A stretch of 64,000 nucleotides of DNA from Escherichia coli (GCA_031701365.1 GCA_031701365.1_4118.1), one strand, 5' to 3'; shown: positions 1 to 23,453, counted from the stretch's first letter. The notes: generated by a model not told the origin, from the sequence alone. Numbers and translations: made by a program.

Positions 1-88
1 GTATTCCACGCAGTAAGTACGAAAAAAGTAGTTGCCATTGATAGTAAAGTACTGTAATATAGTTTCATTAACTCAAGGAGTCAATACA

Positions 89-673
89 ATGCGTAACTAT
101 ACTAAATTCATCCGTTCACTTCATGCAATGGAAACTAATAAAGAGATCCTTACAGCTTGTCGGTTAGCTGGTCTGGAGATCGTCGGTGCGGGTTCTTCCC
201 GTATTGTATTCGCTTTAAATGATCGGTTAGTGATTAAGGTCGCTAATAGTGATGCTGGCGTAGATCAAAATGAAACTGAATGTAAGGTATGGAATTTTTT
301 AGATTATGACCGTCCGCACCTTAAACAGTACTTTGCAAAGGTGCATATGCATTTATGCGATCCTGATAATCTGTTTATTGTTATGGATCGTTTGAGTATT
401 GCAAGCAAAGGTAGTGCAAAGCACATAACGGCCTGTAATGAATTAAAGTACAATGCTAAACGTAAAACTATTGAACGCCAACACCATTTTGCCGATGCAC
501 TACAACACGTCGATGATACATTATCAACACTAACGATCATTGATATCAGCAAGACGAACATAGGCCAGGATCGCAACGGCTTGATTAAAGTACTTGATTA
601 CGGTTTAACCCGCAATATCTGGAATCAGTACTATAAAAAGCGTGATGTAAAAACCGTAACAATAACACGATAA
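89..673 (+). CDS. putative protein kinase-like protein
   Basis: ORF 32-673; likely start ATG 89 after AAGGAG. Gly-rich loop GAGSSRIVF, VIKV lysine, DISKTNIGQD catalytic-loop-like and DYG (DFG-like) motifs. Confidence 0.45.
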   Translation: MRNYTKFIRSLHAMETNKEILTACRLAGLEIVGAGSSRIVFALNDRLVIKVANSDAGVDQNETECKVWNFLDYDRPHLKQYFAKVHMHLCDPDNLFIVMDRLSIASKGSAKHITACNELKYNAKRKTIERQHHFADALQHVDDTLSTLTIIDISKTNIGQDRNGLIKVLDYGLTRNIWNQYYKKRDVKTVTITR

Positions 674-687
674 AAAAGATTAAAAAA

Positions 688-716
688 GGGATTGACTCAG
701 GTCAGTCCCTTTGCTA
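688..716 (+). terminator. rho-independent terminator-like hairpin
   Basis: GGGATTGAC-tcag-GTCAGTCCC inverted repeat followed by T-rich tract. Confidence 0.5.
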
Positions 717-744
717 TTATATATTCATTGAGAGATAACTCACT

Positions 745-775
745 GACCCATAGGGTGCGGAAGTGTATCTATTAT
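745..775 (+). promoter_or_regulatory. conserved intergenic box, copy 1
   Basis: CCCATAGGGTGCGGAAGTGTATCT; near-identical copy at 2665-2690, each downstream of a hairpin and upstream of a promoter cassette. Confidence 0.4.
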
Positions 776-809
776 ATAAGTATTCAGTACTGAAAACTAT
801 TTTATAAAA

Positions 810-875
810 AGTACTTGCATTGTACTTAGAATCAAGTATAATGTTTTATATCGAGAGGGGGAAATGGTTCTCCCT
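810..875 (+). promoter_or_regulatory. PeSL-like cassette 1: early-type promoter plus 5-prime UTR stem-loop
   Basis: -35 TTGCAT 815-820, 16-bp spacer, -10 TATAAT 837-842; hairpin AGGGGGAA-atgg-TTCTCCCT 855-874 just upstream of RBS. Confidence 0.6.
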
Positions 876-896
876 GGTACATTAAGGAATAAAATC

Positions 897-1118
897 ATGA
901 CTACGATGACTTGCGTTCACGCTTCAAATCTTCTGAATGATGCAGCATTTAAAGCAGGTGAAGAATATCAATGCTATCGGGATGAAAATAAAAAAGTTTT
1001 CGTCGTTGATGCTAACGGTTTCCATATTGAATTACAATCCGGCTTCACTGGTGTTGATGGTAAATCAGTATGGGGCGTACAGGACGATAACGGTACATAT
1101 CATTTTAAACGTAATTAA
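897..1118 (+). CDS. hypothetical small early protein
   Basis: ORF 864-1118, start moved to ATG 897 after AAGGA RBS downstream of cassette 1. Confidence 0.6.
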   Translation: MTTMTCVHASNLLNDAAFKAGEEYQCYRDENKKVFVVDANGFHIELQSGFTGVDGKSVWGVQDDNGTYHFKRN

Positions 1119-1121
1119 GTA

Positions 1122-1180
1122 TTGACAAAGTATATCAGTACTGTATAATAGTTTACATCAAGGGGAGAATAGTTCTCCCC
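1122..1180 (+). promoter_or_regulatory. PeSL-like cassette 2
   Basis: -35 TTGACA 1122-1127, TG-extended -10 TATAAT 1144-1149; hairpin GGGGAGA-atagt-TCTCCCC 1162-1180. Confidence 0.6.
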
Positions 1181-1202
1181 ACCAATAAAAGGAAACAAAA
1201 TT

Positions 1203-1475
1203 ATGTCCAGCTACTCCGCTACTATGATTATTAAAGATATGAACGGTAATCCTACTTCTGCTGGTGGATCATTTGGTAACATTAACTTAGATGGTCGGTT
1301 ATCAATTGAATCAGCCATCAATGCCGCGAAAGAAGTTTTTAAGAATGAATGTACTGTAAGCAAGCTGGATTATATGGGCTTCGCTATCGAGAAAACTAAT
1401 CGTTTTGTGGACTACAAAAAACCACTGATGATCGATACTAACCTGAAAGCTAACGAAGTGGAATACTTATTATGA
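1203..1475 (+). CDS. hypothetical small early protein
   Basis: ORF with AAAGGA RBS; downstream of cassette 2. Confidence 0.65.
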   Translation: MSSYSATMIIKDMNGNPTSAGGSFGNINLDGRLSIESAINAAKEVFKNECTVSKLDYMGFAIEKTNRFVDYKKPLMIDTNLKANEVEYLL

Positions 1476-1663
1476 CAGTAGAAGAAGTTAAAAAAGTACT
1501 GGCAGTACTACGCTATCATAATCATTGTAAGGTGAAGAATGATCCTGATTATCTTGATTCATCGCTGGAAGAGGATACACTACAAGCAATAAGCCATATG
1601 CAAAAAATGCTTAAGCGTATGACCGAAAAGAATAGGCCGGACTATATAGGAAATAAAATTTAA
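1472..1663 (+). CDS. hypothetical small protein
   Basis: ORF whose start overlaps upstream stop (ATGA), translationally coupled. Confidence 0.55.
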   Translation: MTVEEVKKVLAVLRYHNHCKVKNDPDYLDSSLEEDTLQAISHMQKMLKRMTEKNRPDYIGNKI

Positions 1664-1670
1664 AAAGTAC

Positions 1671-1727
1671 TTGCATTGTAAGTAAAACAAAGTATAATGT
1701 TTTGCATAGGGGGAGATATCCTCCCCC
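1671..1727 (+). promoter_or_regulatory. PeSL-like cassette 3
   Basis: -35 TTGCAT 1671-1676, -10 TATAAT 1693-1698; hairpin GGGGGAG-atatc-CTCCCCC 1709-1727. Confidence 0.6.
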
Positions 1728-1746
1728 ACTAATAAGGAGTACTAAA

Positions 1747-1971
1747 ATGGCTAACTTTGATGAACTGATGCGGGAAGTAGCTACCCTGGCAGAAGAGAAG
1801 AAATCATTTGATTCTATCTATAACACCGCTTACAGTGATTCAGTACTGGCATGTACTCAGGATCAAAAAGATGAACTGATCGCCACCTATCATGAAGCAT
1901 GGAAGTATTACCGCCAATGGGAGAAAGAAGAAAGCGAGTCTACCATCAACGGCCTCAATAATCTAATCTAA
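1747..1971 (+). CDS. hypothetical small early protein
   Basis: ORF 1702-1971, start moved to ATG 1747 after AAGGAG RBS. Confidence 0.65.
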   Translation: MANFDELMREVATLAEEKKSFDSIYNTAYSDSVLACTQDQKDELIATYHEAWKYYRQWEKEESESTINGLNNLI

Positions 1972-2046
1972 AGTTTTATTTCAGTACTATTATCATAGCG
2001 TGATAGTACTGTTGTGATAACTTTACTAACTACAAGGGGAAACATA

Positions 2047-2304
2047 ATGGAACAGTTTAAAACGTATCGGGTAAATCCAATCGCCACAGCCTACGTAGAA
2101 GACCATAAAACATTACCAGTACAGACACCAATCAAAGGCCGTATCTATCGTGCTATGCAGTGGAATAACGCCTATAATGGCTATAAAGCGGTATCCGCTG
2201 CAATGTACTTAGGGGATGGCGAATGGTTTGATCCAAATAATCCTGGTGCACTCGATAGTACTGAAAAAATGAAATGGGCCGACTATATCGAAGATATCTC
2301 ATAA
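2047..2304 (+). CDS. hypothetical small protein (MYLGDGE motif)
   Basis: ORF 2014-2304, start at ATG 2047; shares MYLGDGE motif with ORF 21801-22109. Confidence 0.6.
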   Translation: MEQFKTYRVNPIATAYVEDHKTLPVQTPIKGRIYRAMQWNNAYNGYKAVSAAMYLGDGEWFDPNNPGALDSTEKMKWADYIEDIS

Positions 2305-2311
2305 AAACTAT

Positions 2312-2373
2312 TTGACAGTACTACAAGATAATGTATAATGTTTTACATAGAGCGGGGGAATAGTTCTCCCGCA
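2312..2373 (+). promoter_or_regulatory. PeSL-like cassette 4
   Basis: -35 TTGACA 2312-2317, TG-extended -10 TATAAT 2334-2339; imperfect hairpin GCGGGGGA..TCTCCCGC 2352-2373. Confidence 0.6.
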
Positions 2374-2392
2374 CCTTTAGGAGTAAAACATT

Positions 2393-2593
2393 ATGTCAAT
2401 CGCTAACGAATTGGTTGCAGTACTGAATGAAGCAAAAGCCAACTGCATCGATGTACAGATCAAAGAGCTTGGCAATGGCTTGATCGGCTGTACATGTTCA
2501 GTTCAAACGGCTACCGATTATCGGGAAGTGGAATCACTCGAATCACTGGTACGGTATATTAAAATCCTGGTAGAAGATTGGAGAATCATCTAA
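2393..2593 (+). CDS. hypothetical small early protein
   Basis: ORF with TAGGAG RBS downstream of cassette 4. Confidence 0.65.
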   Translation: MSIANELVAVLNEAKANCIDVQIKELGNGLIGCTCSVQTATDYREVESLESLVRYIKILVEDWRII

Positions 2594-2611
2594 CAAAAAA
2601 GAATAAAAAAA

Positions 2612-2640
2612 GGAGTTGACTTCGGTCCGCTCCTTTAGTA
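2612..2640 (+). terminator. terminator-like hairpin
   Basis: GGAGTTGAC-ttcg-GTCCGCTCC followed by TTT. Confidence 0.45.
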
Positions 2641-2664
2641 CTATATACGCATAGACAAAAACTA

Positions 2665-2690
2665 GCCCACAGGGTGCAGAGAAGTATCTG
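2665..2690 (+). promoter_or_regulatory. conserved intergenic box, copy 2
   Basis: CCCACAGGGTGCAGAGAAGTATCT, homologous to 745-775. Confidence 0.4.
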
Positions 2691-2766
2691 TAAGATAGTT
2701 AATAACGGTGAGTAACTATCTGCTGGTGGATGTAATTCCAGTACTCAAAACTATTTCAAAAAAGTA

Positions 2767-2830
2767 TTGACAAAGTATAGCAGTACTGCAATAATGTATC
2801 TCGTAGGGCGGCAATGGTGCGACGGCCCAC
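2767..2830 (+). promoter_or_regulatory. PeSL-like cassette 5
   Basis: -35 TTGACA 2767-2772, -10 AATAAT about 2790-2795; GC-rich imperfect hairpin GGGCGGC..GGCCC 2806-2828. Confidence 0.5.
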
Positions 2831-2848
2831 AAAGTTAGGAGCTTCATC

Positions 2849-3175
2849 ATGAGTACTTCAATCGCTATCGTTAAAGCTTTCATCCGTACCAATTTCGACC
2901 GCATTACTGTTGATGGTAATGATCGGGAAGTAGAATACTCTTTCATTGTTGCACAAACCGCAAACGGTGCACGCTATATCTTAAACGATAGTGAAGCTAA
3001 CCACTACTTCTATAATAAAGGATTACACTACATCCCTAGCGAAGTAGTCTACACTAAGATGAATAAGCTGGTAGACAAGATTAACGCTAAAGGTACTATC
3101 GATTTACAGTACTGGACCGAAACAGATCCAGAATACGGATCACATCGTTACCTGAATCCAGGTATTAAAATGTAA
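2849..3175 (+). CDS. hypothetical small early protein
   Basis: ORF with AGGAG RBS. Confidence 0.65.
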   Translation: MSTSIAIVKAFIRTNFDRITVDGNDREVEYSFIVAQTANGARYILNDSEANHYFYNKGLHYIPSEVVYTKMNKLVDKINAKGTIDLQYWTETDPEYGSHRYLNPGIKM

Positions 3176-3182
3176 AAAGTAC

Positions 3183-3245
3183 TTGCATAGTACTTAGAAT
3201 CAAGTATAATGTTTTACATAGAGAGGGGGAAATGGTTCTCCCTCC
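3183..3245 (+). promoter_or_regulatory. PeSL-like cassette 6, near-identical to cassette 1
   Basis: -35 TTGCAT 3183-3188, -10 TATAAT 3205-3210; hairpin AGGGGGAAATGGTTCTCCCT 3223-3242; about 70 bp nearly identical to 808-875. Confidence 0.6.
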
Positions 3246-3264
3246 TAAATTAAGGAGTTTTATC

Positions 3265-3666
3265 ATGACCTTCTCAATCACTTCCTTCGCTGACGTTTTA
3301 GTACTGGCTCGGACTTTTGGTAAAGATGCACTGGAGTACGCTGTAAGTAATGGCACTCTCCAACCGGAACAATGCCGCATCATTGGAAACTGTAAACGTT
3401 GGGCGGTATCCAATACTATTGCACTAGAAAACTTCAACGATGGTAACAATGAGTATTCAGTTGATGCAGTATTCGAAGCCGTTGATCTTGGCGGTATCTA
3501 TAACACTAACCTAAATGATGTGCGTATCGTTCGCACGGGGTTCGGTGCTTATGATGTATCTATCCGTGAAGCTATGAACACCGGATACATTAGTAAGGAC
3601 TTACTTGCTCACATCATGCAGCTATGGACGGAACGTAACGAAGCACGCACTATCTTAGGACTATAA
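3265..3666 (+). CDS. hypothetical protein
   Basis: ORF 3232-3666, start moved to ATG 3265 after AAGGAG RBS. Confidence 0.65.
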   Translation: MTFSITSFADVLVLARTFGKDALEYAVSNGTLQPEQCRIIGNCKRWAVSNTIALENFNDGNNEYSVDAVFEAVDLGGIYNTNLNDVRIVRTGFGAYDVSIREAMNTGYISKDLLAHIMQLWTERNEARTILGL

Positions 3667-3690
3667 GCATTACACATCACCAAACATCAT

Positions 3691-3710
3691 AGGCCGCTCT
3701 CTAGCGGCCT
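3691..3710 (+). terminator. palindromic hairpin, weak terminator candidate
   Basis: AGGCCGCT-ctct-AGCGGCCT; no clear U-tract. Confidence 0.35.
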
Positions 3711-3734
3711 TAACTATATCAGGAGGGCATACAT

Positions 3735-3944
3735 ATGTTCTATACAGTATACAGCGTTCTAGGTACGATTGCTGGCGTACATGATAACGTCGATGATGCT
3801 ATGCGTACAGTACTAACACAAGTCCCCCTCAAGCCTAAGACTGTTAAGCAGATGACAGCACGACTAACCAGGGCGGGCGATGGCGTGGAAGTATGGCAGG
3901 ACTACGGGGATACACAGATAATCGTTAGCGTAACGAAGGATTAA
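3735..3944 (+). CDS. hypothetical small protein
   Basis: ORF with AGGAGG RBS. Confidence 0.55.
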   Translation: MFYTVYSVLGTIAGVHDNVDDAMRTVLTQVPLKPKTVKQMTARLTRAGDGVEVWQDYGDTQIIVSVTKD

Positions 3945-4135
3945 TGCGTAAAGGGATCTAGTACTGATTCAGAAAAAAGTCAAGGCGTTTTTAAAATTAT
4001 GCGTTAAAAAAATGCATAGGTAATCCCTTGACTTTTTTGAAATAAAAGGGATTGGACTATGGCAAAATGCGTAGGGGGCTAAAGGGCGGGTAACCTTAGC
4101 GACTTCGATAAAGGGGTATTACGAATAAAATGTTA

Positions 4136-4163
4136 TTGACTTTTTATACAATTCATATATTAT
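4136..4163 (+). promoter_or_regulatory. sigma70-like promoter upstream of family A array
   Basis: -35 TTGACT 4136-4141, 16-bp spacer, -10 TATTAT 4158-4163. Confidence 0.45.
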
Positions 4164-4193
4164 ATGATTGATATTATTTTCAAGGGAGTCCCT

Positions 4194-4391
4194 ATGCGTA
4201 TTTTAACTCAAGCAGAACACCACGAAAGACTTATCAATAACATGGCTATGATAATGTATAAGTCACATGAACGTGGTATTGCCTATAAGCGTGAATTAAT
4301 TATGGCACTATTCATTGGAACTAACTTTCAGGAAAGGTATGTCAAGGATTGGATTTGGTATTTAATTGAAGATGTAACGAGTAAACTATGA
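4194..4391 (+). CDS. family A small protein 1
   Basis: C-terminal FIGTNFQERYV..IEDVTSKL; start moved to ATG 4194. Confidence 0.65.
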   Translation: MRILTQAEHHERLINNMAMIMYKSHERGIAYKRELIMALFIGTNFQERYVKDWIWYLIEDVTSKL

Positions 4392-4588
4392 AAATGCGTA
4401 AATTAACCGAAAAAGAATATCAATCACTGTTACGTAAAAACTACGTAAAGATTTACAATACAGACACACACGTAGAACGAATGGAGTTATACCTTTTGAT
4501 TACATTGGGAACTAACTATCAGGATGCATGGGTGATTCAATATATGGATGCATTGAAAAATGAAATATTGTCCACGAGGAAACAATGA
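4388..4588 (+). CDS. family A small protein 2
   Basis: LGTNYQDAWV motif; ATGA overlap with upstream stop. Confidence 0.65.
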   Translation: MKMRKLTEKEYQSLLRKNYVKIYNTDTHVERMELYLLITLGTNYQDAWVIQYMDALKNEILSTRKQ

Positions 4589-4794
4589 AAACTATAACAC
4601 GAACCCAATCATTCGGACTTATCTTGAAATACATGGACTTAATGGTGGATATCAGCAAAGACCTGCCTAAAACTGCAATTGAAGTTGCAAGAGCAGAGAT
4701 CCGCATGTTGGCTGTACTGAACACAAACCATCAGGAAGAGTATGTTGACGATTGGATTCGATTTTTAATAGAAGATATTAAGAGTAAACTATGA
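4585..4794 (+). CDS. family A small protein 3
   Basis: LNTNHQEEYV..IEDIKSKL. Confidence 0.65.
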   Translation: MKTITRTQSFGLILKYMDLMVDISKDLPKTAIEVARAEIRMLAVLNTNHQEEYVDDWIRFLIEDIKSKL

Positions 4795-5003
4795 TTATAT
4801 TAACACCTGAAGAATATAAGAAACGTTTTAAATCTGTCCAGGCTGAAATATTACTTATATACCTTTCAAATGCAGATCTTAACTTATCAAGGGTAATGGA
4901 GAAGGATTTACTTATGGGTGCATTTTTGGATACAGACTTTCAGGAGTATTATGTAGGAGAATACTTTATTGCACTTCAGAACCACATTAAGAGTAAACTA
5001 TGA
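4791..5003 (+). CDS. family A small protein 4
   Basis: LDTDFQEYYV..IKSKL. Confidence 0.65.
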   Translation: MIILTPEEYKKRFKSVQAEILLIYLSNADLNLSRVMEKDLLMGAFLDTDFQEYYVGEYFIALQNHIKSKL

Positions 5004-5215
5004 TTATTCTAGAAAAATCATATCAATATACTGAACGCATCGCTGCCAGACAACTTGAAATCCTCATAATATACGAAGAGACTTCTGATTTAAACTTAGC
5101 CGAGGTATTGGAAAATGAAATACTTTTGGGTGCATTCTTGGGAACAGACTATCAGGAGTATTATGAGGAAAAGTATTTGTCATCTCTTGAGAAATACGTC
5201 AGGAGCAAACTATGA
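5000..5215 (+). CDS. family A small protein 5
   Basis: LGTDYQEYYE..VRSKL. Confidence 0.65.
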   Translation: MIILEKSYQYTERIAARQLEILIIYEETSDLNLAEVLENEILLGAFLGTDYQEYYEEKYLSSLEKYVRSKL

Positions 5216-5439
5216 AACATTTAAGTAATATAGAGAAGAATAAAATTATCATTGCTGTAATAAACAAATATTTTACACTTCCACAAAAAGAATGTTTATC
5301 TATAAGGGAACACAGGATAAACACCACCGAGATTCGCATGTTGGCTGTACTGGGGACTAACTTCCAAGAAGGCTATGTTCATGAGCACATCGTTGCACTC
5401 ACTAATTACATAATGGACAAATGTAATGAACATCATTAA
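5212..5439 (+). CDS. family A small protein 6
   Basis: LGTNFQEGYV. Confidence 0.65.
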   Translation: MKHLSNIEKNKIIIAVINKYFTLPQKECLSIREHRINTTEIRMLAVLGTNFQEGYVHEHIVALTNYIMDKCNEHH

Positions 5440-5650
5440 TAACTTTGAATACGAGGCCCGTGCTAAGAGTGCCAGAAAAAAAGAGAACACCATTTACTTC
5501 ACTATGATGTACTTACAATGGACTGAGATTGAAGAAAAGGTTGCTGAAGTATGGATGTTGGAATTCATGGGGACGCAGTATCAGAATAGGTTTGCGGGTG
5601 AGTATATCAATGTTCTTATGAAACAAATAGAAAGAAAGGAAAAGAACTAA
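5426..5650 (+). CDS. family A small protein 7
   Basis: MGTQYQNRFA. Confidence 0.6.
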   Translation: MNIINNFEYEARAKSARKKENTIYFTMMYLQWTEIEEKVAEVWMLEFMGTQYQNRFAGEYINVLMKQIERKEKN

Positions 5651-5808
5651 TGGTTTTCATTAACATATCTGACCAACTCGATACTAAACTAAAAGTCGAG
5701 AAGAGTGAGGGATGGATGCTGTACTTTCTTGGAACTTCTCATCAGAATTTTTATATCCATGAACACATAGTTGCACTCACAAATCTAATAAGGGATAAAT
5801 GCAAATGA
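5650..5808 (+). CDS. family A small protein 8 (52 aa, not in ORF track)
   Basis: Hand-translated MVFINISDQLDTKLKVEKSEGWMLYFLGTSHQNFYIHEHIVALTNLIRDKCK; below track length cutoff. Confidence 0.55.
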   Translation: MVFINISDQLDTKLKVEKSEGWMLYFLGTSHQNFYIHEHIVALTNLIRDKCK

Positions 5809-6062
5809 AACACTTAACACAAGATGAATATTCACTTAGAATTCGAAAGCTCACCCCAGAAGCAAGAGTAATCTACGATGACGATGCACTTTCATGGAAC
5901 GAGATGAAAGTTAAAGTTCATGAGCTATGGTTGCTGTACTTTGTGGGAACCCAATATCAAGAGAAATATTGTACCGATTATCTTGAACAACTAATGGATC
6001 TTATACAGATAAAACTAAATGAACGAATTGTGGAAAAATATGAAAACTTTATCAAGCACTGA
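5799..6062 (+). CDS. family A small protein 9
   Basis: VGTQYQEKYC; C-terminal extension past usual IK.KL end. Confidence 0.6.
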   Translation: MQMKHLTQDEYSLRIRKLTPEARVIYDDDALSWNEMKVKVHELWLLYFVGTQYQEKYCTDYLEQLMDLIQIKLNERIVEKYENFIKH

Positions 6063-6291
6063 GTATCAAACTGCCCTCTTCTCCCTTCTAAACACTCTCC
6101 GCACGAACAATAAACTTTATAATTCCCGTGAAGCTGATATTGTCAACGGTGAACTTTATCTTATGAAATTCATTGGAACAAACTATCAAGATCTGTTCAT
6201 TCAACGATACCTGGCAGCATTGAGAAACGAAATATCAGATAAAACCCGCCAAGCCAGAAGAGAATGGAAGAAACAATGCGACAAAGACTAA
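6019..6291 (+). CDS. family A small protein 10
   Basis: IGTNYQDLFI; start uncertain (6019 or 6040). Confidence 0.55.
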   Translation: MNELWKNMKTLSSTEYQTALFSLLNTLRTNNKLYNSREADIVNGELYLMKFIGTNYQDLFIQRYLAALRNEISDKTRQARREWKKQCDKD

Positions 6292-6527
6292 ATCACAAAA
6301 TGTATTGTAAACTATTACAGAATCTGGGACAAAAACACTATGATACAGTATCTGAAATATTACCCTATGATATCATGCGTTTAATTCATAGTGAGGCAGA
6401 GATGCTTGTACTGATGACAGGCACTGATAAAACAGCAATTACCAAATCTATAGATATGTTCATCGATGCACACTGCCAACACATTAGAACCGAGATATGG
6501 AGACGTGAGAATGAAAATCCTGACTGA
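6264..6527 (+). CDS. family A-like small protein 11 (divergent)
   Basis: MTGTDKTAI in place of LGTNYQ; start uncertain. Confidence 0.45.
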   Translation: MEETMRQRLNHKMYCKLLQNLGQKHYDTVSEILPYDIMRLIHSEAEMLVLMTGTDKTAITKSIDMFIDAHCQHIRTEIWRRENENPD

Positions 6528-6726
6528 GCATGAGTATTACAATAGGTTAAGAACGATACAAGGAAAAGTCTCGTGGACTTTTTTAGATAATTCTATTGCA
6601 GAAGCGGACCGATGTGTTATAATAGCTGAAATGAAGCTATTACTCTTCATTGGGACAAACTATCAAAGTATCTACATAGACGCATGGTTAAGCAGCTTAC
6701 GTCTGAAGTCGGTGAGTTTAAAATGA
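6511..6726 (+). CDS. family A small protein 12
   Basis: IGTNYQSIYI; start ATG 6511 (MKILTEHEY). Confidence 0.6.
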   Translation: MKILTEHEYYNRLRTIQGKVSWTFLDNSIAEADRCVIIAEMKLLLFIGTNYQSIYIDAWLSSLRLKSVSLK

Positions 6727-6941
6727 GAAAATTAATAGGTTTCGAATATGTTAAGCTTCTACAAACCTGTGGAATCAGAAGGAGAATGATTCAAAAGGAT
6801 AAAAGAATTGCCGAAGAACGAAAGTATATAATGATAACTGAACTTTATGTCTTAACACTCTTAGGCACAAACTATCAACACACTTATGTAGACCTATGGA
6901 TCGATGCACTACAGAAAGAGGTTAAAAGTAAATGCAAATGA
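6723..6941 (+). CDS. family A small protein 13
   Basis: LGTNYQHTYV; ATGA overlap start 6723. Confidence 0.6.
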   Translation: MRKLIGFEYVKLLQTCGIRRRMIQKDKRIAEERKYIMITELYVLTLLGTNYQHTYVDLWIDALQKEVKSKCK

Positions 6942-7150
6942 TTAATTTAAGTAAAGACGAATTTTATGTTATACTGGCGAAAACTTATCCAGCACGTAAG
7001 GCCGTTTATGATAGTCACATTATTGAACCCTCAAAGAAGTTGATTTTAGTAAATGAGATAAAGATGCTTTCAGTCTTAGGAACAAACTATCAAGAGAATG
7101 CGGTACTGATGTTAATTGATGCCCTCCAGCGAGAGGTTAAACGTAAATGA
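6932..7150 (+). CDS. family A small protein 14
   Basis: LGTNYQENAV; N-terminus MQMINLSKDEF. Confidence 0.65.
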   Translation: MQMINLSKDEFYVILAKTYPARKAVYDSHIIEPSKKLILVNEIKMLSVLGTNYQENAVLMLIDALQREVKRK

Positions 7151-7392
7151 AAATGATTAATTTAACTTACCATGAATATCAAAAACGTTTAAATGCATCC
7201 AGAGATATAAGGATTCAAATATTCAATAACAAAAGATTGAAGCCTGATATCAGGAAAATCAAAATCATAGAAGCCGTGTTGTGCAACTTCCTAGGGACTA
7301 ACTATCAGGAAGGTAAGGTAGAAAACTATCTTATAGAACTCATGAATAGTATTGAAAATAAATGCGAGGATAATGATCATGAAAATGATTAA
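7147..7392 (+). CDS. family A small protein 15
   Basis: LGTNYQEGKV; N-terminus MKMINLTYHEY. Confidence 0.65.
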   Translation: MKMINLTYHEYQKRLNASRDIRIQIFNNKRLKPDIRKIKIIEAVLCNFLGTNYQEGKVENYLIELMNSIENKCEDNDHEND

Positions 7393-7642
7393 TTTAAGTA
7401 AAGATGAATATACCGAGCGTATGACAAAAAATACTCTTAAACGTAATACAATCTATCACAACCCAGAAATTCAACACAGTAAGAAAATGATTATGATACG
7501 TGAGTTAAAGATGGGTGTATTCTTAGGAACAAACTATCAAGAGATGGAAGTAAATCGCTTAATCGCGGAGTTACTAATGGAAATCAAAGGTAAGCTGTAC
7601 TTTTATCAAATGACCCGTCCACTAAGGTGTACTGATCGATGA
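7379..7642 (+). CDS. family A small protein 16
   Basis: LGTNYQEMEV; start 7379 (MKMINLSKDEY) by analogy with the junction at 7147. Confidence 0.6.
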   Translation: MKMINLSKDEYTERMTKNTLKRNTIYHNPEIQHSKKMIMIRELKMGVFLGTNYQEMEVNRLIAELLMEIKGKLYFYQMTRPLRCTDR

Positions 7643-7881
7643 ATATTGTGAATAACATCAGATTAGCAGAAAGATTTGATAGAATTGGGGAAGCACTGAG
7701 AAGATACGATAAAGAATATGGTCATTTGAGCTTTTCTATAGAAAAGAGATATGAACTTGAAGCAGAGTTTAAAATGCAGAGTCTCTTAGGCACACAGTAT
7801 CAAAACCAATATATTCAAACTTGGATTGATTGTTTAATCCAGACAATTTACGTAAGGAACATTAAATGCAAAATGAAATGA
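7639..7881 (+). CDS. family A small protein 17
   Basis: LGTQYQNQYI. Confidence 0.6.
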   Translation: MNIVNNIRLAERFDRIGEALRRYDKEYGHLSFSIEKRYELEAEFKMQSLLGTQYQNQYIQTWIDCLIQTIYVRNIKCKMK

Positions 7882-8111
7882 TATACTTAACATATAATGA
7901 ATACGTCGAGAGATTAGTTAGTGCCAAGAGATATACAAATCAACTTCCTCACAACCCAAACCAAACCCCAGAGGAAAAGAATGCGGAAGCTCTATTCCAA
8001 GCACTACCATACCTTCTTGGAACTGATAGGCAGGAGTATCACGTTGAACGTATAATTAAATCTCTTAAAATCACTATTAAGGAAAAGATACATGAAGCAC
8101 TTGACAGATGA
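7866..8111 (+). CDS. family A small protein 18
   Basis: LGTDRQEYHV. Confidence 0.6.
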   Translation: MQNEMIYLTYNEYVERLVSAKRYTNQLPHNPNQTPEEKNAEALFQALPYLLGTDRQEYHVERIIKSLKITIKEKIHEALDR

Positions 8112-8322
8112 TGAACATGGGCTTATAGTAATGGATGTAATCAACATCGAATACAAAAAGTTGATACGCTACCGTTGTTATGAAGATAAGCAACTAGTTC
8201 TAGCAGAACAGAAGTTGTTTCGACTCTTAAACACAAACTACCAAGCACAATACGAAGAATCGTATATGTACCTTTTGGCGAGGAAAGCAAAAAGAGATTA
8301 TGAAAATTTTAAGCAAAGGTGA
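8092..8322 (+). CDS. family A small protein 19
   Basis: LNTNYQAQYE. Confidence 0.6.
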   Translation: MKHLTDDEHGLIVMDVINIEYKKLIRYRCYEDKQLVLAEQKLFRLLNTNYQAQYEESYMYLLARKAKRDYENFKQR

Positions 8323-8521
8323 TTCAGTAATATTACTTATAGAGAGTTCAAGTAAATTCTTAAACATAACACTGTCTGATATAGATGAAGATGATAAAGA
8401 AGTACTGAGAGCAGATTTAAGAGTACTGTTGCATCTCGGAACAAACCTACAAGAAGAATATGTAGAGTACTACATTGATGAACTTAAAGAATCAGTACTG
8501 AGAAGATGCAAATGCGAATGA
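8300..8521 (+). CDS. family A small protein 20
   Basis: LGTNLQEEYV. Confidence 0.6.
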   Translation: MKILSKGDSVILLIESSSKFLNITLSDIDEDDKEVLRADLRVLLHLGTNLQEEYVEYYIDELKESVLRRCKCE

Positions 8522-8733
8522 TTACCGACGAAGAATACCTAACAATTATAAATGGATTGTTTTTGAAGTTGTTTGTTATTAACACATCAGATATACCAGA
8601 TATGGATAAAATTATTAAGAGAAATGAAATCTATGTTCTAGCTACCCTGGGAACTAACTATCAAGAATACGATATTAATGATTATATTAATACACTTAAA
8701 CGAGCGATTGAACTAAAATGCCAAAACCACTAG
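8506..8733 (+). CDS. family A small protein 21
   Basis: LGTNYQEYDI. Confidence 0.6.
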   Translation: MQMRMITDEEYLTIINGLFLKLFVINTSDIPDMDKIIKRNEIYVLATLGTNYQEYDINDYINTLKRAIELKCQNH

Positions 8734-8933
8734 GAACAGCAGAATACATTGAACTCATGGGATTACACTTCTCATCCTTTCAGAAACTTATGCGAGAATC
8801 AAAGAATGATTTAGAATATACCATCAGAGGTTCAGATTTAAGAATGCTTCTCACCCTAGACACAGATTCCCAAGAGCGTTTTGTCAATGAGCACATTAGA
8901 GCACTTTTAATGGAAATTAAAAGTAAACTATGA
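8718..8933 (+). CDS. family A small protein 22
   Basis: LDTDSQERFV..IKSKL. Confidence 0.6.
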   Translation: MPKPLGTAEYIELMGLHFSSFQKLMRESKNDLEYTIRGSDLRMLLTLDTDSQERFVNEHIRALLMEIKSKL

Positions 8934-9145
8934 AGATAATATCAAATCAAGAGTACTTGGCACTATTCAGAAAGAATAATCACAAATTTATGGCACTTGA
9001 TTCAAGAACTGATATAAGTGAACTTGAAAAAAATCTTTTGCGTTCAGAGATGATAGTACTGACACTCTTAGGAACACAGCATCAAGAAAGAACTGTTAAT
9101 TCACACATAGAAATACTTAAGAAGCTTATACAGGAAAAGTTATGA
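8930..9145 (+). CDS. family A small protein 23
   Basis: LGTQHQERTV. Confidence 0.6.
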   Translation: MKIISNQEYLALFRKNNHKFMALDSRTDISELEKNLLRSEMIVLTLLGTQHQERTVNSHIEILKKLIQEKL

Positions 9146-9363
9146 GAATCATAACACAACAAGATATTCTTAAGTTCACAAGGGTTCATGCATCTGAATT
9201 TGATGCTATATTATCAAAAAGTTACAACAACCCTTATACAGAAGATGTACACTACAATGAATTATGGATGTATATACTTTTAGGTACAGATCATCAAGAG
9301 CAAGCCGTACAGAGGTATTTGAGTGCTTTAAGTACTGCTACTGCTAATGGAGTATGTGTTTAA
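9142..9363 (+). CDS. family A small protein 24
   Basis: LGTDHQEQAV. Confidence 0.6.
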   Translation: MRIITQQDILKFTRVHASEFDAILSKSYNNPYTEDVHYNELWMYILLGTDHQEQAVQRYLSALSTATANGVCV

Positions 9364-9364
9364 T

Positions 9365-9607
9365 ATGAAAGTACTGACAGAATTAGAAATGTATCATAGA
9401 TTTAATAAGTACTATCATTTACTTAAACCTATACAGAGGATTAAGTGTCCCTTTGTAGTGAAACAGGTATTAATTTATGAGCATAAGTTATTTGTATCAT
9501 TAGGTACGAATGAACAAGAGTATTATTTGAAGTTGTACTTGATTACATTAATAGATTTAATTCACTATAAAACCAAACAAGCTAATAAAGAGAAATATGA
9601 AAACTAA
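9365..9607 (+). CDS. family A small protein 25
   Basis: LGTNEQEYYL; start ATG 9365 (MKVLTEL). Confidence 0.55.
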   Translation: MKVLTELEMYHRFNKYYHLLKPIQRIKCPFVVKQVLIYEHKLFVSLGTNEQEYYLKLYLITLIDLIHYKTKQANKEKYEN

Positions 9608-9941
9608 TATACAACTCAAGGTATATAAATCATTTGAACATACATATATCAAAAGTAGTCTATGTAGAGATGTAATGGATTACAAGGGTAAGCCATTCAC
9701 AATTACCTATGATTCTTATGTTAGTGATTTATATATATCATTTGTTAATTACGAAAATAAAATATACAAGCACGTTGATATTAAAGATTTAAGTACTTTA
9801 TCACCAGAGGAATACTTTCAGGAATCATTAGTATGGGATTTAGAGTTCCCTATGCCATTAGTACATAAGATGATAGTACTAATGAAAGAATCTAAACAGG
9901 AGCCTAATAGTGGTTATGAAGAACACATTATTGAGTATTAA
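9597..9941 (+). CDS. family B protein 1
   Basis: C-terminal EEYFQESLVWD. Confidence 0.6.
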   Translation: MKTNIQLKVYKSFEHTYIKSSLCRDVMDYKGKPFTITYDSYVSDLYISFVNYENKIYKHVDIKDLSTLSPEEYFQESLVWDLEFPMPLVHKMIVLMKESKQEPNSGYEEHIIEY

Positions 9942-9973
9942 GAGTTCTGATAGTACTGAGAGTACAAATGTTC

Positions 9974-10002
9974 TTGACAGTACTTTTCATTACTGATATA
10001 GT
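9974..10002 (+). promoter_or_regulatory. sigma70-like promoter
   Basis: -35 TTGACA 9974-9979, 17-bp spacer, -10 TATAGT 9997-10002. Confidence 0.45.
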
Positions 10003-10031
10003 GCACCAACGTTAATCATAGGGTACAGATT

Positions 10032-10277
10032 ATGTTAAAATTTTTAAATTTCCTTATCGTCTTGTGTATTGTTCTTGGAATTGCACCGTTTGTATTAGCG
10101 TATCTGGATTCAGATGAAATGCAGAAGATGAATTGCACAAAGACAGGACAGAGTAGAGAAGAGACGGTTATGATGCCTGTAACGGTTATTGTGAATAACA
10201 TACCAATTACGAACATGATTCCTACCCTAACGACAACGTACCAGTACTCTTGTACAGATGGAGAGAGGTGGAGATGA
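10032..10277 (+). CDS. hypothetical small membrane protein
   Basis: Hydrophobic N-terminal segment FLNFLIVLCIVLGIAPFVLAYL; weak RBS. Confidence 0.4.
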   Translation: MLKFLNFLIVLCIVLGIAPFVLAYLDSDEMQKMNCTKTGQSREETVMMPVTVIVNNIPITNMIPTLTTTYQYSCTDGERWR

Positions 10278-10594
10278 AATTTAATATAGCAAAAACATCT
10301 AATATATGTATATTTGGTTATGCCGAAGAGTTGGGTGATATTGACATTCTTTTGTACAAAAAGGATGGTGTTATGCATTTCAAGTACCAGGATGAAGAGG
10401 CAGACAATTATCCTTTACCTAATTTAGTACAAATGCAGGAAGAGGAATTATTCCAGTACAGCTTAGTATATGACATTGATATTTGCACGATGCCAGTACT
10501 AATTAATATTCAAAAAGTGATGCTCGATGTGTTTGATAGGCTAATACAAGGCACACAAGGAAGAACCATATATGTCAATGTACAAGACAATTAA
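10274..10594 (+). CDS. family B protein 2
   Basis: EELFQYSLVYD; start probably ATG 10274 (MKFNIAK). Confidence 0.6.
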   Translation: MKFNIAKTSNICIFGYAEELGDIDILLYKKDGVMHFKYQDEEADNYPLPNLVQMQEEELFQYSLVYDIDICTMPVLINIQKVMLDVFDRLIQGTQGRTIYVNVQDN

Positions 10595-10787
10595 TCAAGA
10601 ATGGAAGACCCAAAAGTACAGGGAATTCAGTACTAGTTTAACAAAAGATGCATTGAATTTAAAAAGAACAGAGTTTGATATGTTTATTTTTCTTGGAACA
10701 CGTTCCCAGGAACAATACATTCATTATTATATAAGTTCATTGCGAACGGAGATCGTATGCAAAACACAGGGTATTATAAAAAAGTAA
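10572..10787 (+). CDS. family A small protein 26 (displaced copy)
   Basis: LGTRSQEQYI. Confidence 0.55.
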   Translation: MSMYKTINQEWKTQKYREFSTSLTKDALNLKRTEFDMFIFLGTRSQEQYIHYYISSLRTEIVCKTQGIIKK

Positions 10788-11023
10788 ACCAATATTTGTA
10801 CGCTACAAAGTACAGGGATTTTTGTTTAAAGGGTGGTGATGAAGATTTTTCTTTGCGATTATCAGAATTTAATCTGTTATTTTATCTTGGTACATCGGAA
10901 CAAGAAGAAATGGCACAGAAATTTATCAAGCACCTTGAACAAAAAATTCATATGCAAATTTTGATGCTTAAGGTACATAATGAGATAAACAAATATGAAC
11001 CCAACAATAGTACAGGATCTTAA
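10757..11023 (+). CDS. family A small protein 27 (displaced copy)
   Basis: LGTSEQEEMA. Confidence 0.5.
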   Translation: MQNTGYYKKVNQYLYATKYRDFCLKGGDEDFSLRLSEFNLLFYLGTSEQEEMAQKFIKHLEQKIHMQILMLKVHNEINKYEPNNSTGS

Positions 11024-11384
11024 ACAAGTAATATTCCTTTTGAATACAAGAAGTGAAATGTATACAGAGTTTAAAGAGATTAATGCATTTTATCAGAATT
11101 TTGTAATTCAAGAGTTCAGTGATTTAATTACAGATGCATTATTTGAATTATCGGAAAAATACAAAGGAACAGAGTTCAGTGTTAAGAATGTATTACGTTC
11201 TTTATCAAAGCGTATAATAAAATTAGATCATTTTACATTTGACAATAAAGATTTATTCAGTCACAATCCAAGTACAGCTTTATATTTTATTCCTGATTCA
11301 GACAAAAATCATCCTATTCATTACGGATGGATTTTGTCGTACATAGTACAAGGAAAGGAGTATCCTATTAAATGGAACGATTAG
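10995..11384 (+). CDS. family B-like protein 3 (divergent)
   Basis: AFYQNFVIQE variant motif; placement in family tentative. Confidence 0.45.
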   Translation: MNPTIVQDLKQVIFLLNTRSEMYTEFKEINAFYQNFVIQEFSDLITDALFELSEKYKGTEFSVKNVLRSLSKRIIKLDHFTFDNKDLFSHNPSTALYFIPDSDKNHPIHYGWILSYIVQGKEYPIKWND

Positions 11385-13939: not shown

Positions 13940-13964
13940 GATATGGGCTTTTTTCGTTTTGGTA

Positions 13965-15674: not shown

Positions 15675-15675
15675 T

Positions 15676-22555: not shown

Positions 22556-23088
22556 TGAAAGTTAACATCAATGACTTTGATGCATTACAAGATTTATCAA
22601 AAAAGATTCGCATAATCGTACCAGTACTCAAAAAATGCAGTACTGGTTTAATTGATCCTAGTACTGTTGTTAATGAGAAGTACAATTTTCATCGTGTATT
22701 ACAGGGTACAGGTGCATTTCAGAAGTGTGATGTACGTGAGAAACACGTAATTGATACATCATTGTTTTCTATTGGTGCACCTGTGTCGAATAATTCTATT
22801 TTCCTGGATAACGCAGGAAATATTCAACAATTAACATTTAAGAAAAGGAAAAAGAACAATAACATTGGTGTGTACGCGATGAAGTGGGGTCAACCTGATT
22901 TGAAGCGTGAAATTCACATCCCTAAGTACAATTACAATGCATTTGACGAACAGTGTTTTCAACTATCGTGTACTGACCCTGACTATGCAATCATTCAGTT
23001 CTATATGGAATTGCAGATAGCATTTAACAGTAATTTATATATTAACTTGTTGGCAATGAACATCGATGAAGTATTCAAAAACATTTAA
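22552..23088 (+). CDS. family B protein 25
   Basis: DEQCFQLSCTDP. Confidence 0.55.
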   Translation: MMKVNINDFDALQDLSKKIRIIVPVLKKCSTGLIDPSTVVNEKYNFHRVLQGTGAFQKCDVREKHVIDTSLFSIGAPVSNNSIFLDNAGNIQQLTFKKRKKNNNIGVYAMKWGQPDLKREIHIPKYNYNAFDEQCFQLSCTDPDYAIIQFYMELQIAFNSNLYINLLAMNIDEVFKNI

Positions 23089-23284
23089 TCGAATTGAATA
23101 CATGAGAACTGTGAGTGCAGTGTGGGATATATGGTTCACTACTAAACCAAAAATGGATTACCATGACTTTAAGCTCTTGTTCTTCGTTGGCTCTAACAAA
23201 CAGGATGTTGCAATGAAGGGTTATATTCAGCACTTACAGGAACTAATTCAGAAGAGGGTTAATGAAAATAATAGACCAAGATGA
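23066..23284 (+). CDS. family A small protein 28 (displaced copy)
   Basis: VGSNKQDVAM. Confidence 0.5.
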   Translation: MKYSKTFNRIEYMRTVSAVWDIWFTTKPKMDYHDFKLLFFVGSNKQDVAMKGYIQHLQELIQKRVNENNRPR

Positions 23285-23453
23285 TATTGCTAAACTATTC
23301 AATATATATTCTACTAGAATGATGCAAACCGACTCATATGGTACGGAATTCAAAGAGTTGAAAGTACTGATGTACTTGGGAACCCAATATCAGGAACAAG
23401 TTATTTTGGAATATATTAATTCGTTGAAGAAGGATATCCGTTATGTACGATGA
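23262..23453 (+). CDS. family A small protein 29 (displaced copy)
   Basis: LGTQYQEQVI. Confidence 0.55.
   Translation: MKIIDQDDIAKLFNIYSTRMMQTDSYGTEFKELKVLMYLGTQYQEQVILEYINSLKKDIRYVR

Follow-up and report, generated by a model that had tools for sequence, protein, structure and literature searches.

Gene content of the locus

The window, which is the whole 64,000-nucleotide stretch of DNA analyzed here, belongs to a giant (jumbo) E. coli phage and encodes one helical protein of about 70 residues, so far uncharacterised, in some 29 diverged copies (Table 1). In the ORF listing, 25 consecutive plus-strand ORFs run unbroken from 4164/4194 to 9607, and four displaced copies lie on the same strand at 10572–10787, 10757–11023, 23066–23284, and 23262–23453. 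An L-G-T-[NDQ]-x-Q motif runs through the alignment (n = 29): the T and the Q are found in 28 of the 29 copies, and the G in 25.

Similarity among the copies is far above chance. Single-linkage clustering by BLASTP (E < 1e-4) joined 27 of the 29 copies with zero false members, leaving out A11 (6264–6527) and A19 (8092–8322). Nine of the 29 copies were scanned against PHROGs v4. Eight of them (four within 4388–7150, two at 8506–9145, and those at 10572–10787 and 23262–23453) matched phrog_4148 with E values of 4e-9 to 5e-24, mostly over profile positions 1–70 of 74, and the ninth, A11, gave no match to this profile. A11 reads M-T-G-T-D-K at the motif, has a 6-residue insertion, and has lost the Y-Q; it aligned colinearly with the other 28 copies in hhalign, and since this profile-profile comparison was the sole means of detection, it is regarded as a probable divergent member. 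The original prediction, namely about 29 paralogs of a roughly 70-aa protein, 25 in an array at 4194–9607 and four displaced, was thus borne out by the ORF listing and the alignment, and BLASTP, PHROGs, and hhalign all show the similarity. The family has been named before as phrog_4148 ("unknown function") and as Asteriusvirus "hypothetical protein" genes, e.g., 121Q gp319–341 and phAPEC6 gp470c. These are of the same family as the genes in the window over the full length, and the database record is a sequence cluster only. In the literature searched, neither the array as such nor its structure or evolution is described.

Table 1. Features at the array locus. E values without a profile name are from a leave-one-out (LOO) HMM search given per copy, which missed A11
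Feature	Position	Strand	Length (aa)	LOO E	Remarks
Distal end of left direct terminal repeat (DTR)	1..4096	+			boundary ~4096, aligned from vB_Ec-M-J
Non-coding leader across DTR boundary	3945..4193	+			96% mean column identity, four phages
Predicted sigma70-like promoter TTGACT-16-TATTAT	4136..4163	+			10/12 matches
A01	4194..4391	+	65	8.6e-12
A02	4388..4588	+	66	2.7e-14	phrog_4148 E 5.8e-18
A03	4585..4794	+	69	3e-16
A04	4791..5003	+	70	9.6e-17
A05	5000..5215	+	71	1.4e-13	with A04, closest paralog pair (49% identity)
A06	5212..5439	+	75	6.1e-18
A07	5426..5650	+	74	7.8e-16
A08	5650..5808	+	52	1.4e-14	shortest; without most of helices 1–2
A09	5799..6062	+	87	3.3e-20	phrog_4148 E 4.5e-24
A10	6040..6291	+	83	1.2e-13	alternative start 6019
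A11	6264..6527	+	87		probable divergent member; hhalign 68%, E 4.7e-5
A12	6511..6726	+	71	5.5e-16	alternative start 6466
A13	6723..6941	+	72	1.7e-18	ATGA overlap with A12
A14	6932..7150	+	72	3.2e-16
A15	7147..7392	+	81	8e-18
A16	7379..7642	+	87	1.4e-20	alternative TTG start 7352
A17	7639..7881	+	80	5.5e-11
A18	7878..8111	+	77	5.7e-9	alternative start 7866
A19	8092..8322	+	76	1.8e-6	weakest firm member; outside BLASTP cluster
A20	8300..8521	+	73	2.6e-17
A21	8506..8733	+	75	3.4e-19	copy modelled; AF2 pLDDT 96.9
A22	8718..8933	+	71	7.1e-13
A23	8930..9145	+	71	3.4e-19
A24	9142..9363	+	73	2.4e-14
A25	9365..9607	+	80	8.3e-12	alternative start 9347; final main-array gene
A26	10572..10787	+	71	1.1e-13	displaced; Y-K N-terminus sub-type
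A27	10757..11023	+	88	5.5e-8	displaced
A28	23066..23284	+	72	1.4e-7	displaced, within another paralog array
A29	23262..23453	+	63	3.9e-12	displaced; phrog_4148 E 1.2e-16

The 24 junctions of the main array were scored with motif-consistent starts: 11 are 4-nt ATGA overlaps, 12 are overlaps of 1–28 nt, and at the remaining junction the genes are separated by 1 nt. The coding fraction of the array is 99.98%, and Shine-Dalgarno pairing reaches −4.2 kcal/mol before the array starts versus −2.0 at other ATGs (p = 3e-5). The tight packing with ATGA junctions that had been claimed is therefore confirmed. A single translationally coupled operon had also been claimed; this is not secure, because promoter-like sites also occur within the array (5814–5842, 10/12; 8101–8129, 11/12).

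A predicted sigma70-like promoter does lie directly 5′ of the array, as had been noted, within a conserved leader that also contains repeated ATGCGTA and AAGGGAT motifs and a Shine-Dalgarno sequence, AAGGGAG (4182–4188). The −35 hexamer of this site is invariant in four phages. Perfect 12/12 sigma70 promoter matches are found close upstream, at 1122 and 2312; in this AT-rich DNA, promoter-like matches are not in excess (47 observed versus 54.8 expected from shuffled sequence). In vB_Ec-M-J, the annotated DTR spans 1–21525 and the first family gene begins at 21624. The boundary obtained from the DTR of fEgEco12 with the match offset falls on the same position as the vB_Ec-M-J mapping (~4096), and the fEgEco12 DTR, 20,993 bp long, is backed by both PhageTerm and restriction digests (PMC13070987). 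The first array gene lies about 100 bp past this boundary. In the related phage PA5oct, RNA-seq found the DTR genes to be early and host RNA polymerase-dependent (PMC7318152), and in phage CBB, RpoD-type promoters are concentrated in the small-ORF region running into the terminal repeat (PMC5259590). From the conserved sigma70-like site and by analogy with these phages, we infer that the array is an early unit transcribed by the host RNA polymerase.

Predicted fold, conserved residues, and database searches

The AF2 model of A21 has four helices (pLDDT 96.9), an N-terminal strand paired with the G-T loop, and a buried core, and that of A11 is all-helical with low confidence (pLDDT 68). Family members in BFVD, whose models were predicted independently, overlay with TM scores of 0.77–0.97 even at about 31% identity. 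These models show the protein as one domain made of four helices. The earlier view of a variable N-terminus joined to a conserved C-terminal module is not supported: besides the single domain, the N-terminal part has a conserved motif of its own in the alignment (M-[KR]-x-[LI]-[TSN]-x-x-E-Y), and dN/dS is the same in the N-terminal (0.33–0.41) and C-terminal (0.32–0.39) halves. The conserved columns are mainly hydrophobic at helical spacing, together with the G-T-N-x-Q turn. Near-invariant polar residues, namely the T, the Q, and two E, are located around the helix 3/4 turn, and the E upstream of the motif is conserved in 24 of the 29 copies. These four residues could mark one shared ligand instead of many targets. 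Across the copies, the pI ranges from 4.4 to 9.8 and the net charge from −7 to +7, about half of the copies being basic (pI 8–9.8), and no transmembrane segment was found among them. The modelled copies thus appear to share a single fold, conserved in the core and variable on the surface.

Searches against known families gave little. With all 29 copies, the best Pfam-A match had an E value of 0.006; all matches were below the cut-off, and each family was matched by one member only. PADLOC returned five different models, with one member each (best E 6e-4) and none recurring. The single match in the PDB sequence-profile search, L-aspartate oxidase (E 0.56), was taken as chance, and no homology or fold match to a known inhibitor, anti-defence, or immunity protein was obtained in these searches or in the PDB fold search. 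The virion proteome of phAPEC6, a phage whose family member is gp470c, lists 62 proteins, of which zero are gp4xx proteins; this covers a single relative, and mass spectrometry can miss small proteins. We propose that the array products are not structural and are not packaged in the virion, which also speaks against ejected internal proteins like those of the T4 internal-protein locus.

Variation among related phages

Within the genome, the paralogs share 29% identity on average and 49% at maximum, and they are judged from their sequences to be old. Recent amplification (a "genomic accordion") was ruled out by these values, which leave no near-identical tandem copies. The orthologue dN/dS is 0.35–0.37, slightly above that of the flanking genes (0.23–0.32). 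The description of the family as rapidly diversifying is not upheld, since this ratio is near the flanking values and the paralogs are old. No positive selection was seen by dN/dS in the orthologue comparisons, and therefore a residue-level arms race is not evident; the array genes are under purifying selection.

The variation is seen at the level of whole genes. The copy number of the main array is 23–29 among close relatives, and entire gene cassettes occur in some phages and are missing from others among phages sharing 85–94% DNA identity. Among five phages, 35 gene types were distinguished, of which 19 are common to all five in a fixed order; this retention fits a conserved multi-part function and a variable repertoire equally well. 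Per slot, identity to a given relative is as low as 37% and as high as 100%, with dS lying between 0 and values > 1. For instance, A14 is absent from 121Q, and its G17 and PBECO4 versions are 100% identical; the vB_Ec-M-J allele of A17 is 100% identical, and the best 121Q and G17 matches reach only 46–47%. The A18 type has two copies in each of four relatives, and a copy of A28 in the same context is also present in a related contig. The array of the window is a recombination mosaic composed of blocks of 121Q-like, G17-like, and vB_Ec-M-J-like tracts; since the mosaic extends beyond the array, it may be a genome-wide property.

No reading frame is broken in the window or in three well-sequenced relatives, 121Q, G17, and vB_Ec-M-J, whose annotated genes tile the array, and colinear copies were found by HMM in PBECO4. 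In 36 phage records, this array is found at the corresponding position. Klebsiella phage K64-1 has only four copies, compared with which the family in the window is about 7-fold expanded, and 1.84 billion representative proteins include only 98 clusters of the family at 50% identity. The array is best explained as an old expansion, specific to the lineage, of a single small and soluble protein with four helices.

Possible roles and comparison with known systems

An accessory, conflict-type role for the array is plausible in view of the variable copy number, the gain or loss of cassettes, the mosaic structure, and the 7-fold expansion. Our preferred reading, which we regard as having about an even chance of being correct, is that the array encodes binder proteins which are expressed early and directed at the host. 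Its transcription by the host RNA polymerase would begin soon after DNA entry, at the promoter that comes first in the unique region, about 40 bp beyond the left terminal repeat; ribosomes would move from gene to gene via the overlapping stop and start codons, and the products would remain in the infected cell, unpackaged. Each paralog would present a different surface on the common conserved core, so that together they would act as a battery of single-domain binders or inhibitors directed against polymorphic host proteins, either host-takeover targets or defence/toxin effectors. Tuning of the repertoire would come from whole-gene gain and loss and from block exchange when relatives co-infect, and not from rapid point mutation. 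That the array proteins bind host targets, or counter defences in any way, we only infer.

The conserved turn allows another reading, in which all paralogs dock on one shared partner via the invariant E...L-G-T-N-x-Q-E tip. The partner would be a host hub (RNA polymerase, ribosome, or protease) or a phage protein, with the variable faces serving to recruit or modulate different clients, or to adjust the partner in different hosts. The retention of the T, Q, G, and upstream E despite an overall identity of 24–29%, the modelled clustering of the conserved polar residues at the helix 3/4 turn, and the 19 types kept in a fixed order by all five phages speak for such an adaptor. However, G-T-x-x-Q also fits a purely structural role, bridging to the N-terminal strand; in helix capping, a glycine serves as the C-cap (here of helix 3), and threonine and glutamine as the N-cap box (here of helix 4). 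We consider the adaptor reading rather unlikely. Clearly less likely is a self-assembling set, in which the coupled paralogs would form hetero-oligomeric helical bundles that serve a single joint task early in infection, for example as a scaffold or compartment component or in protecting DNA ends. The copies would then be parts of one machine, not a repertoire. The tight translational coupling, the near-equal gene lengths, the colinear conserved backbone of 19 types, the purifying selection on every slot, and the position of the array adjoining the genome end agree with it, but whole-gene presence or absence at 85–94% DNA identity and the swapping of alleles within one slot, down to 46% identity, sit badly with a fixed stoichiometric complex. 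In addition, the monomer model is confident alone, with a buried core, and no member turned up in the phAPEC6 virion proteome.

The basic pI of about half of the copies, and the combination of an N-terminal strand, helices, and the G-T-N turn, would suit nucleic-acid-binding regulators, with helix-G-T-N-helix as a DNA- or RNA-binding element like the G-x-S/T/N turn of ribbon-helix-helix proteins and the array as many small transcription or translation modulators. A zinc-ribbon expansion of about 35 copies in phage G has likewise been read as possible transcription factors (PMC7824862). We think the regulator reading very unlikely. Finally, the array could be evolutionary debris, a functionless relic of past duplications tolerated in a large genome; many small ORFs in such genomes are uncharacterised (83% unknown in phAPEC6), and the family has no known function. 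This reading is disfavoured and highly improbable: dN/dS is well under 1 in every comparison, the frames are intact or the copies colinear in the phages named above, the starts, Shine-Dalgarno sites, and overlaps are conserved, and all five phages retain the 19 types.

The array resembles several known systems. The host-takeover module of Bacillus phage SPO1 and the pre-early region of phage T5 consist of small early genes in or beside the terminal repeat with strong host-type promoters. Like the array, they have many small one-strand genes at the terminal repeat and sigma70-type promoters; however, as far as is known, their genes are mostly unrelated to each other, whereas here one family occurs about 29 times and early expression is proposed. 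Anti-CRISPR and anti-defence phage operons, which are early, share the small soluble proteins, the tight packing, and the variation between close relatives, but they usually join unrelated genes with an HTH regulator, whereas the array consists of one family and has no HTH gene. Tandem "polyimmunity" arrays of paralogous immunity proteins, reportedly described by Zhang et al. in 2012 in bacterial polymorphic toxin loci, are similar in their head-to-tail small diverged paralogs, conserved scaffold, and whole-gene turnover. They are, however, bacterial and toxin-linked, whereas the present array lies in a phage early-type region and has no Pfam immunity match. The MGF110/360/505 families of African swine fever virus and the terminal host-range genes of poxviruses, which have host-range or immune-evasion roles, are also tandem paralogs near genome ends with isolate-variable copy numbers; the proteins and hosts are unrelated, and the copies in the window are old, not products of recent accordion amplification. 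The last case is Bacillus jumbo phage G, in which about 35 small zinc-ribbon proteins, proposed to be DNA-binding, form a lineage-specific expansion (Iyer et al. 2021, PMC7824862). Although a zinc ribbon differs from a metal-free four-helix protein and the two families have no sequence relation, in both cases a jumbo phage carries a very small protein as tens of paralogs.

Membership and fold of the family

The original prediction described a tandem array of about 25 small paralogous genes (family A) with four displaced copies, and the ORF list contains both: 25 plus-strand ORFs encoding 52-96 aa run unbroken over 4164-9607, and the displaced copies are present at the positions in the table. 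In the multiple alignment (MAFFT), the pattern E-x-x-[ML]-L-x-x-L-G-T-[NDQ]-x-Q-E-x-[YF]-[VI]-x-x-[YWH]-I-x-x-L-x-x-x-I-x-x-K is seen in all copies. The HMM built from the 29 copies matched those 29 among 937 six-frame ORFs, and no further ORF of this set was matched even at E<10. A leave-one-out HMM search, which is not circular, recovered 28 of the 29 copies (E 1.8e-6 to 1.4e-20), and BLASTP single linkage at E<1e-4 joined 27 of them. The independent PHROGs profile phrog_4148 also matches all eight copies scanned (E 4e-9 to 5e-24). The sole outlier is the gene at 6264-6527, which reads M-T-G-T-D-K, carries a six-residue insertion and has lost Y-Q. In hhalign, the profile of its orthologues and that of the remaining 28 copies are colinear (probability 68%, E 4.7e-5); its AlphaFold2 model is all-helical, with a confidence too low to decide on membership (pLDDT 68). 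This gene is a probable divergent member. The tally is 24 firm members and one probable member in the array and four displaced members, and the family accounts for about 5% of the phage gene count (about 29 of roughly 550-600 genes).

Each protein had been thought to consist of a variable N-terminal part and a conserved C-terminal module. This division is not seen in the AlphaFold2 monomer model, obtained for one array copy (8506-8733) with the 29 paralogs as the alignment (pLDDT 96.9, pTM 0.82): the protein is one domain with four helices (residues 8-16, 19-26, 32-46 and 53-73). Because in this model residue 4 (the L of M-K-x-L-T) is bridged to residue 50 (the T of L-G-T), the N- and C-terminal motifs are conserved jointly. 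Most conserved columns are hydrophobic and are spaced as in a helix. No 19-residue window of the family proteins exceeds a Kyte-Doolittle value of 1.5, and the proteins are therefore predicted to be soluble. BLASTP clustering over 9597-28438 and 44461-45870 found other paralog families, whose PHROG matches, where tested, were only of unknown function.

Features of the window, including the blocks of nearest parentage
Feature	Coordinates	Strand	Remark
Displaced family-A copies	10572-10787, 10757-11023, 23066-23284, 23262-23453		
Paralog family, 8 members	19190-28438		146-167 aa
Paralog family, 6 members	9597-9941, 18043-19180, 24602-25651		113-141 aa
Paralog family, 5 tandem members	44461-45870		88-103 aa
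Two paralog pairs	11742/12524 and 27188/31257		
Perfect sigma70 promoter, TTGACA-16-TATAAT	1122-1149	+	12/12, intergenic gap inside terminal repeat
Perfect sigma70 promoter, TTGACA-16-TATAAT	2312-2339	+	12/12, intergenic gap inside terminal repeat
Repeated ATGCGTA in or at the leader	3945, 4067, 4194		Variant ATGCGTT at 3999; 4194 lies at the array's first codons
Nearest-parent block	3900-5300		121Q-like
Nearest-parent block	5300-6100		G17/PBECO4-like
Nearest-parent block	6300-6900		121Q-like
Nearest-parent block	6900-7300		G17-like
Nearest-parent block	7500-7900		vB_Ec-M-J-like; 121Q-like again after

Gene packing and position at the terminal repeat

With the start codons picked to agree with the conserved N-terminal motif, a choice on which the junction counts rest, the predicted ATGA-type overlaps of 4 nt occur at 11 of the 24 junctions, overlaps of 1-28 nt at 12, and a 1-nt gap at one. 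The coding fraction of the array is 99.98%, and a single gene measures roughly 210 bp. The predicted anti-Shine-Dalgarno pairing is stronger upstream of the array starts (-4.2 kcal/mol) than at the other 141 ATGs of the region (-2.0 kcal/mol; Mann-Whitney p = 3e-5). It was also found that AAGAGTAAACTATGA encodes the recurring C-terminal K-S-K-L-stop and also provides both an SD-like AAGAG and the start of the downstream, overlapping gene; because of this double use, the 'IK-x-KL' consensus may in part reflect a constraint at the nucleotide level.

The predicted sigma70-like promoter was found upstream of the array: TTGACT-16-TATTAT at 4136-4163 is followed by AAGGGAG and then by the ATG at 4194. 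Promoter-like matches are not enriched overall (47 vs 54.8 in the shuffled sequence), and this site gains weight only because it is placed in the sole non-coding gap and is conserved. Perfect sites, of which about 0.03 per 12 kb are expected by chance at such a composition (a rough estimate), occur twice inside the terminal repeat, and 11/12 sites are also located at 2767 and 9974. The single operon that had been proposed is plausible, but it is not established, given the inner promoter-like sites at 5814 (10/12) and 8101 (11/12). A scan for plus-strand terminator-like sites inside the array gave none beyond a weak one at 9190; searches gave no tRNA gene for the window and no Rfam family for its first 24 kb (1-24000). 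The window is AT-rich (GC 0.30-0.41), and its gene-like ORFs are on the plus strand. The site at 9974 (TTGACA-17-TATAGT with a TG extension) precedes an 81-aa ORF with a hydrophobic N-terminus (10032-10277), which may encode a small membrane or secreted protein; the minus-strand 120-aa ORF overlapping it (10016-10378) is probably spurious.

The location of the array relative to the direct terminal repeat (DTR) can be seen in two related phages. In vB_Ec-M-J, the annotated DTR covers 1-21525, and the family begins with a gene at 21624. In fEgEco12, a DTR of 20,993 bp was confirmed by PhageTerm and restriction digests (PMC13070987), and the array match starts at 20898. Both place the boundary at about position 4096 of the window, with the -35 hexamer some 40 bp further downstream; therefore, the unique region beside the left repeat has the array as its first transcription unit. 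The non-coding leader spanning this boundary (3945-4193, 250 bp) is 96% identical in four phages, which exceeds the identity of the neighbouring genes. It also holds repeated AAGGGAT/ATCCCTT motifs and may contain sites for packaging, end recognition or regulator binding. In PA5oct, a relative in the same phage group, RNA-seq showed that the DTR genes are early and that transcription depends on the host RNA polymerase (PMC7318152). In CBB, another such relative, RpoD-type promoters cluster in a small-ORF region running into the terminal repeat, which its authors suspected to be the early region (PMC5259590). By analogy with these two phages, the array would be expressed early.

Evolution and distribution of the array

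The main array holds 25 copies in the window, 23 in 121Q, 26 in vB_Ec-M-J, 29 in G17 and 29 in PBECO4. When the 141 copies of these five phages were clustered at >=60% identity, 35 types were obtained: 19 are common to all five phages and 16 occur in one to four, their order is essentially colinear, and a single type has more than one copy in the same genome. Inside the window, the pairwise identity of the paralogs is 29% on average and 49% at maximum. Judged from this divergence, the window paralogs are old, and recent amplification was rejected on account of the maximum. For single slots, the identity with any one relative lies between 37% and 100%, and dS runs from 0 to >1. A 200-bp sliding comparison with the relatives revealed that 3900-11100 consists of alternating blocks of 400-1500 bp with alleles near-identical to 121Q, G17/PBECO4 or vB_Ec-M-J. 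Thus, recombination among relatives reshuffles blocks of two to seven genes. This mosaic continues past the array and thus may not be a feature of the array alone. Owing to the conserved motif, 20-40-nt DNA repeats recur every 212-215 bp, which could be a substrate for unequal or homeologous exchange.

The array had also been seen as consistent with a rapidly diversifying repertoire. Against each of the four relatives, the pooled orthologues give a dN/dS of 0.35-0.37, with no sign of pervasive positive selection, and the two ends of the protein do not differ (0.33-0.41 for profile positions 1-38 vs 0.32-0.39 for positions 39-74). N-terminal hypervariability or positive selection was accordingly rejected, dN/dS being equal in both halves (about 0.36). 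The flanking non-family genes (n=8) give 0.23-0.32. The array genes are under purifying selection, which is perhaps slightly relaxed.

Megablast of 4000-10000 matched 36 phage records (32 Escherichia and 4 Salmonella; identity 84-94%). The retrieved records belong to the genus Asteriusvirus, with genomes of 310-386 kb (121Q, PBECO4, G17, Sharanji, phAPEC6 and others), and every gene under the match is annotated as 'hypothetical protein'. Of 1.84 billion representative proteins, searched exhaustively with HMMER, only 98 clusters (defined at 50% identity in public data) matched at E<1e-3, with lengths of 52-122 aa save for one 269-aa fusion. By tblastn with the family consensus, 11-20 copies are detectable in each Asteriusvirus genome, against 1-3 in those of the Klebsiella Alcyoneusvirus phages (RaK2, K64-1, Muenster); by HMM, K64-1 has four (gp482-484 in tandem and gp494). 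On these counts, the family is narrow and was expanded about seven-fold in the Asteriusvirus lineage.

Several observations concern individual matches. No more distant lineage of the family emerged: the metagenomic outlier P0197 had no match in the phage collection or IMG/VR, and P0103 was rejected as a distant lineage, being a displaced copy of another Asteriusvirus-like contig. The 269-aa protein (P0191), found in phages EC.P1 (338002-338808) and UB, joins an N-terminal family-A domain to a domain of ~180 aa, which is a separate gene conserved in the Klebsiella phages RaK2 and K64-1; the match region is annotated as two genes, and it could be a true fusion, a frameshift or a gene-calling artefact. 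In K64-1 (4855-6371 of the fetched locus), an annotated YafQ-like ribonuclease toxin gene and an annotated protein kinase gene share one small-ORF region with the three family-A homologues arranged in tandem and lie ~3-4 kb upstream of them. For many members, the database entry is an 'Escherichia coli' protein encoded on a contig of 345-360 kb (e.g. P0049, P0053, P0057, P0059); by their look, these contigs are complete Asteriusvirus genomes that entered bacterial assemblies as contamination or because of a carrier state. In CMSTMSU (UNVERIFIED_ORG), the array is split into many short HMM fragments, with only 19 genes annotated in the stretch fetched; this looks like the result of frameshift sequencing errors, not biology.

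Function of the array

The results support the view that the family proteins are real, translated, non-structural, soluble and single-domain, that the array lies at the site at which unique phage DNA would first be reached by the host polymerase, and that it is kept as a diverse set whose membership differs among close relatives. We propose that the array serves as a battery of binders or inhibitors sharing one scaffold, the targets of which would be polymorphic host proteins of takeover or defence; this is the most likely explanation, held with belief and doubt about balanced. That it is a library of single-domain binders on a new four-helix scaffold, each acting against a different host defence or toxin effector, is possible but tentative.

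Other explanations were also considered. The T4 internal-protein locus is marked by conserved N-terminal targeting sequences; a comparable role as virion internal proteins was rejected, as the virion proteome of one relative, phAPEC6, contains no member (0 of 62 proteins from the array region, where the family member is gp470c). The polar cluster E, G, T, N, Q, E is located at the helix 3/4 turn. There, G and T-x-x-Q fit a structural motif of C-cap and N-cap, and they could equally be a candidate shared binding tip; the model of adaptors for a common partner, which rests on this invariant tip, is unlikely. A hetero-oligomeric early machine is quite unlikely; a shared partner or mutual assembly would mean a new early-infection machine of RaK2-like phages. 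The pI (4.4-9.8) and net charge (-7 to +7) vary so widely that they speak against a uniform DNA mimic and a uniform DNA binder. Small nucleic-acid-binding regulators are very unlikely. Non-functional debris is scarcely credible, since it is contradicted by the selection and the intact frames.

GenBank already lists the genes as 'hypothetical protein', PHROGs has them as a cluster of unknown function, and our literature search found no published description of the family, its scale, structure or dynamics. Jumbo phages consist mostly of genes without known function (83% of the genes in phAPEC6). The family can now be handled as one unit with a confident model, a defined position and natural presence/absence variation, and this variation among sequenced relatives could be correlated with host range. 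If the members are inhibitors of host factors or defences, they would supply a set of small binders ready for use and would point to new immunity or takeover targets in E. coli. If the binder library is real, no larger counter-defence gene family would be known from any phage, and its 98 clusters would offer a natural supply of about 100 different inhibitor specificities. The expansion of many small paralogs in a jumbo phage is known in principle from phage G, which has ~35 zinc ribbons (PMC7824862). The proposed battery on a common scaffold would resemble polyimmunity arrays and the terminal multigene families of large DNA viruses.
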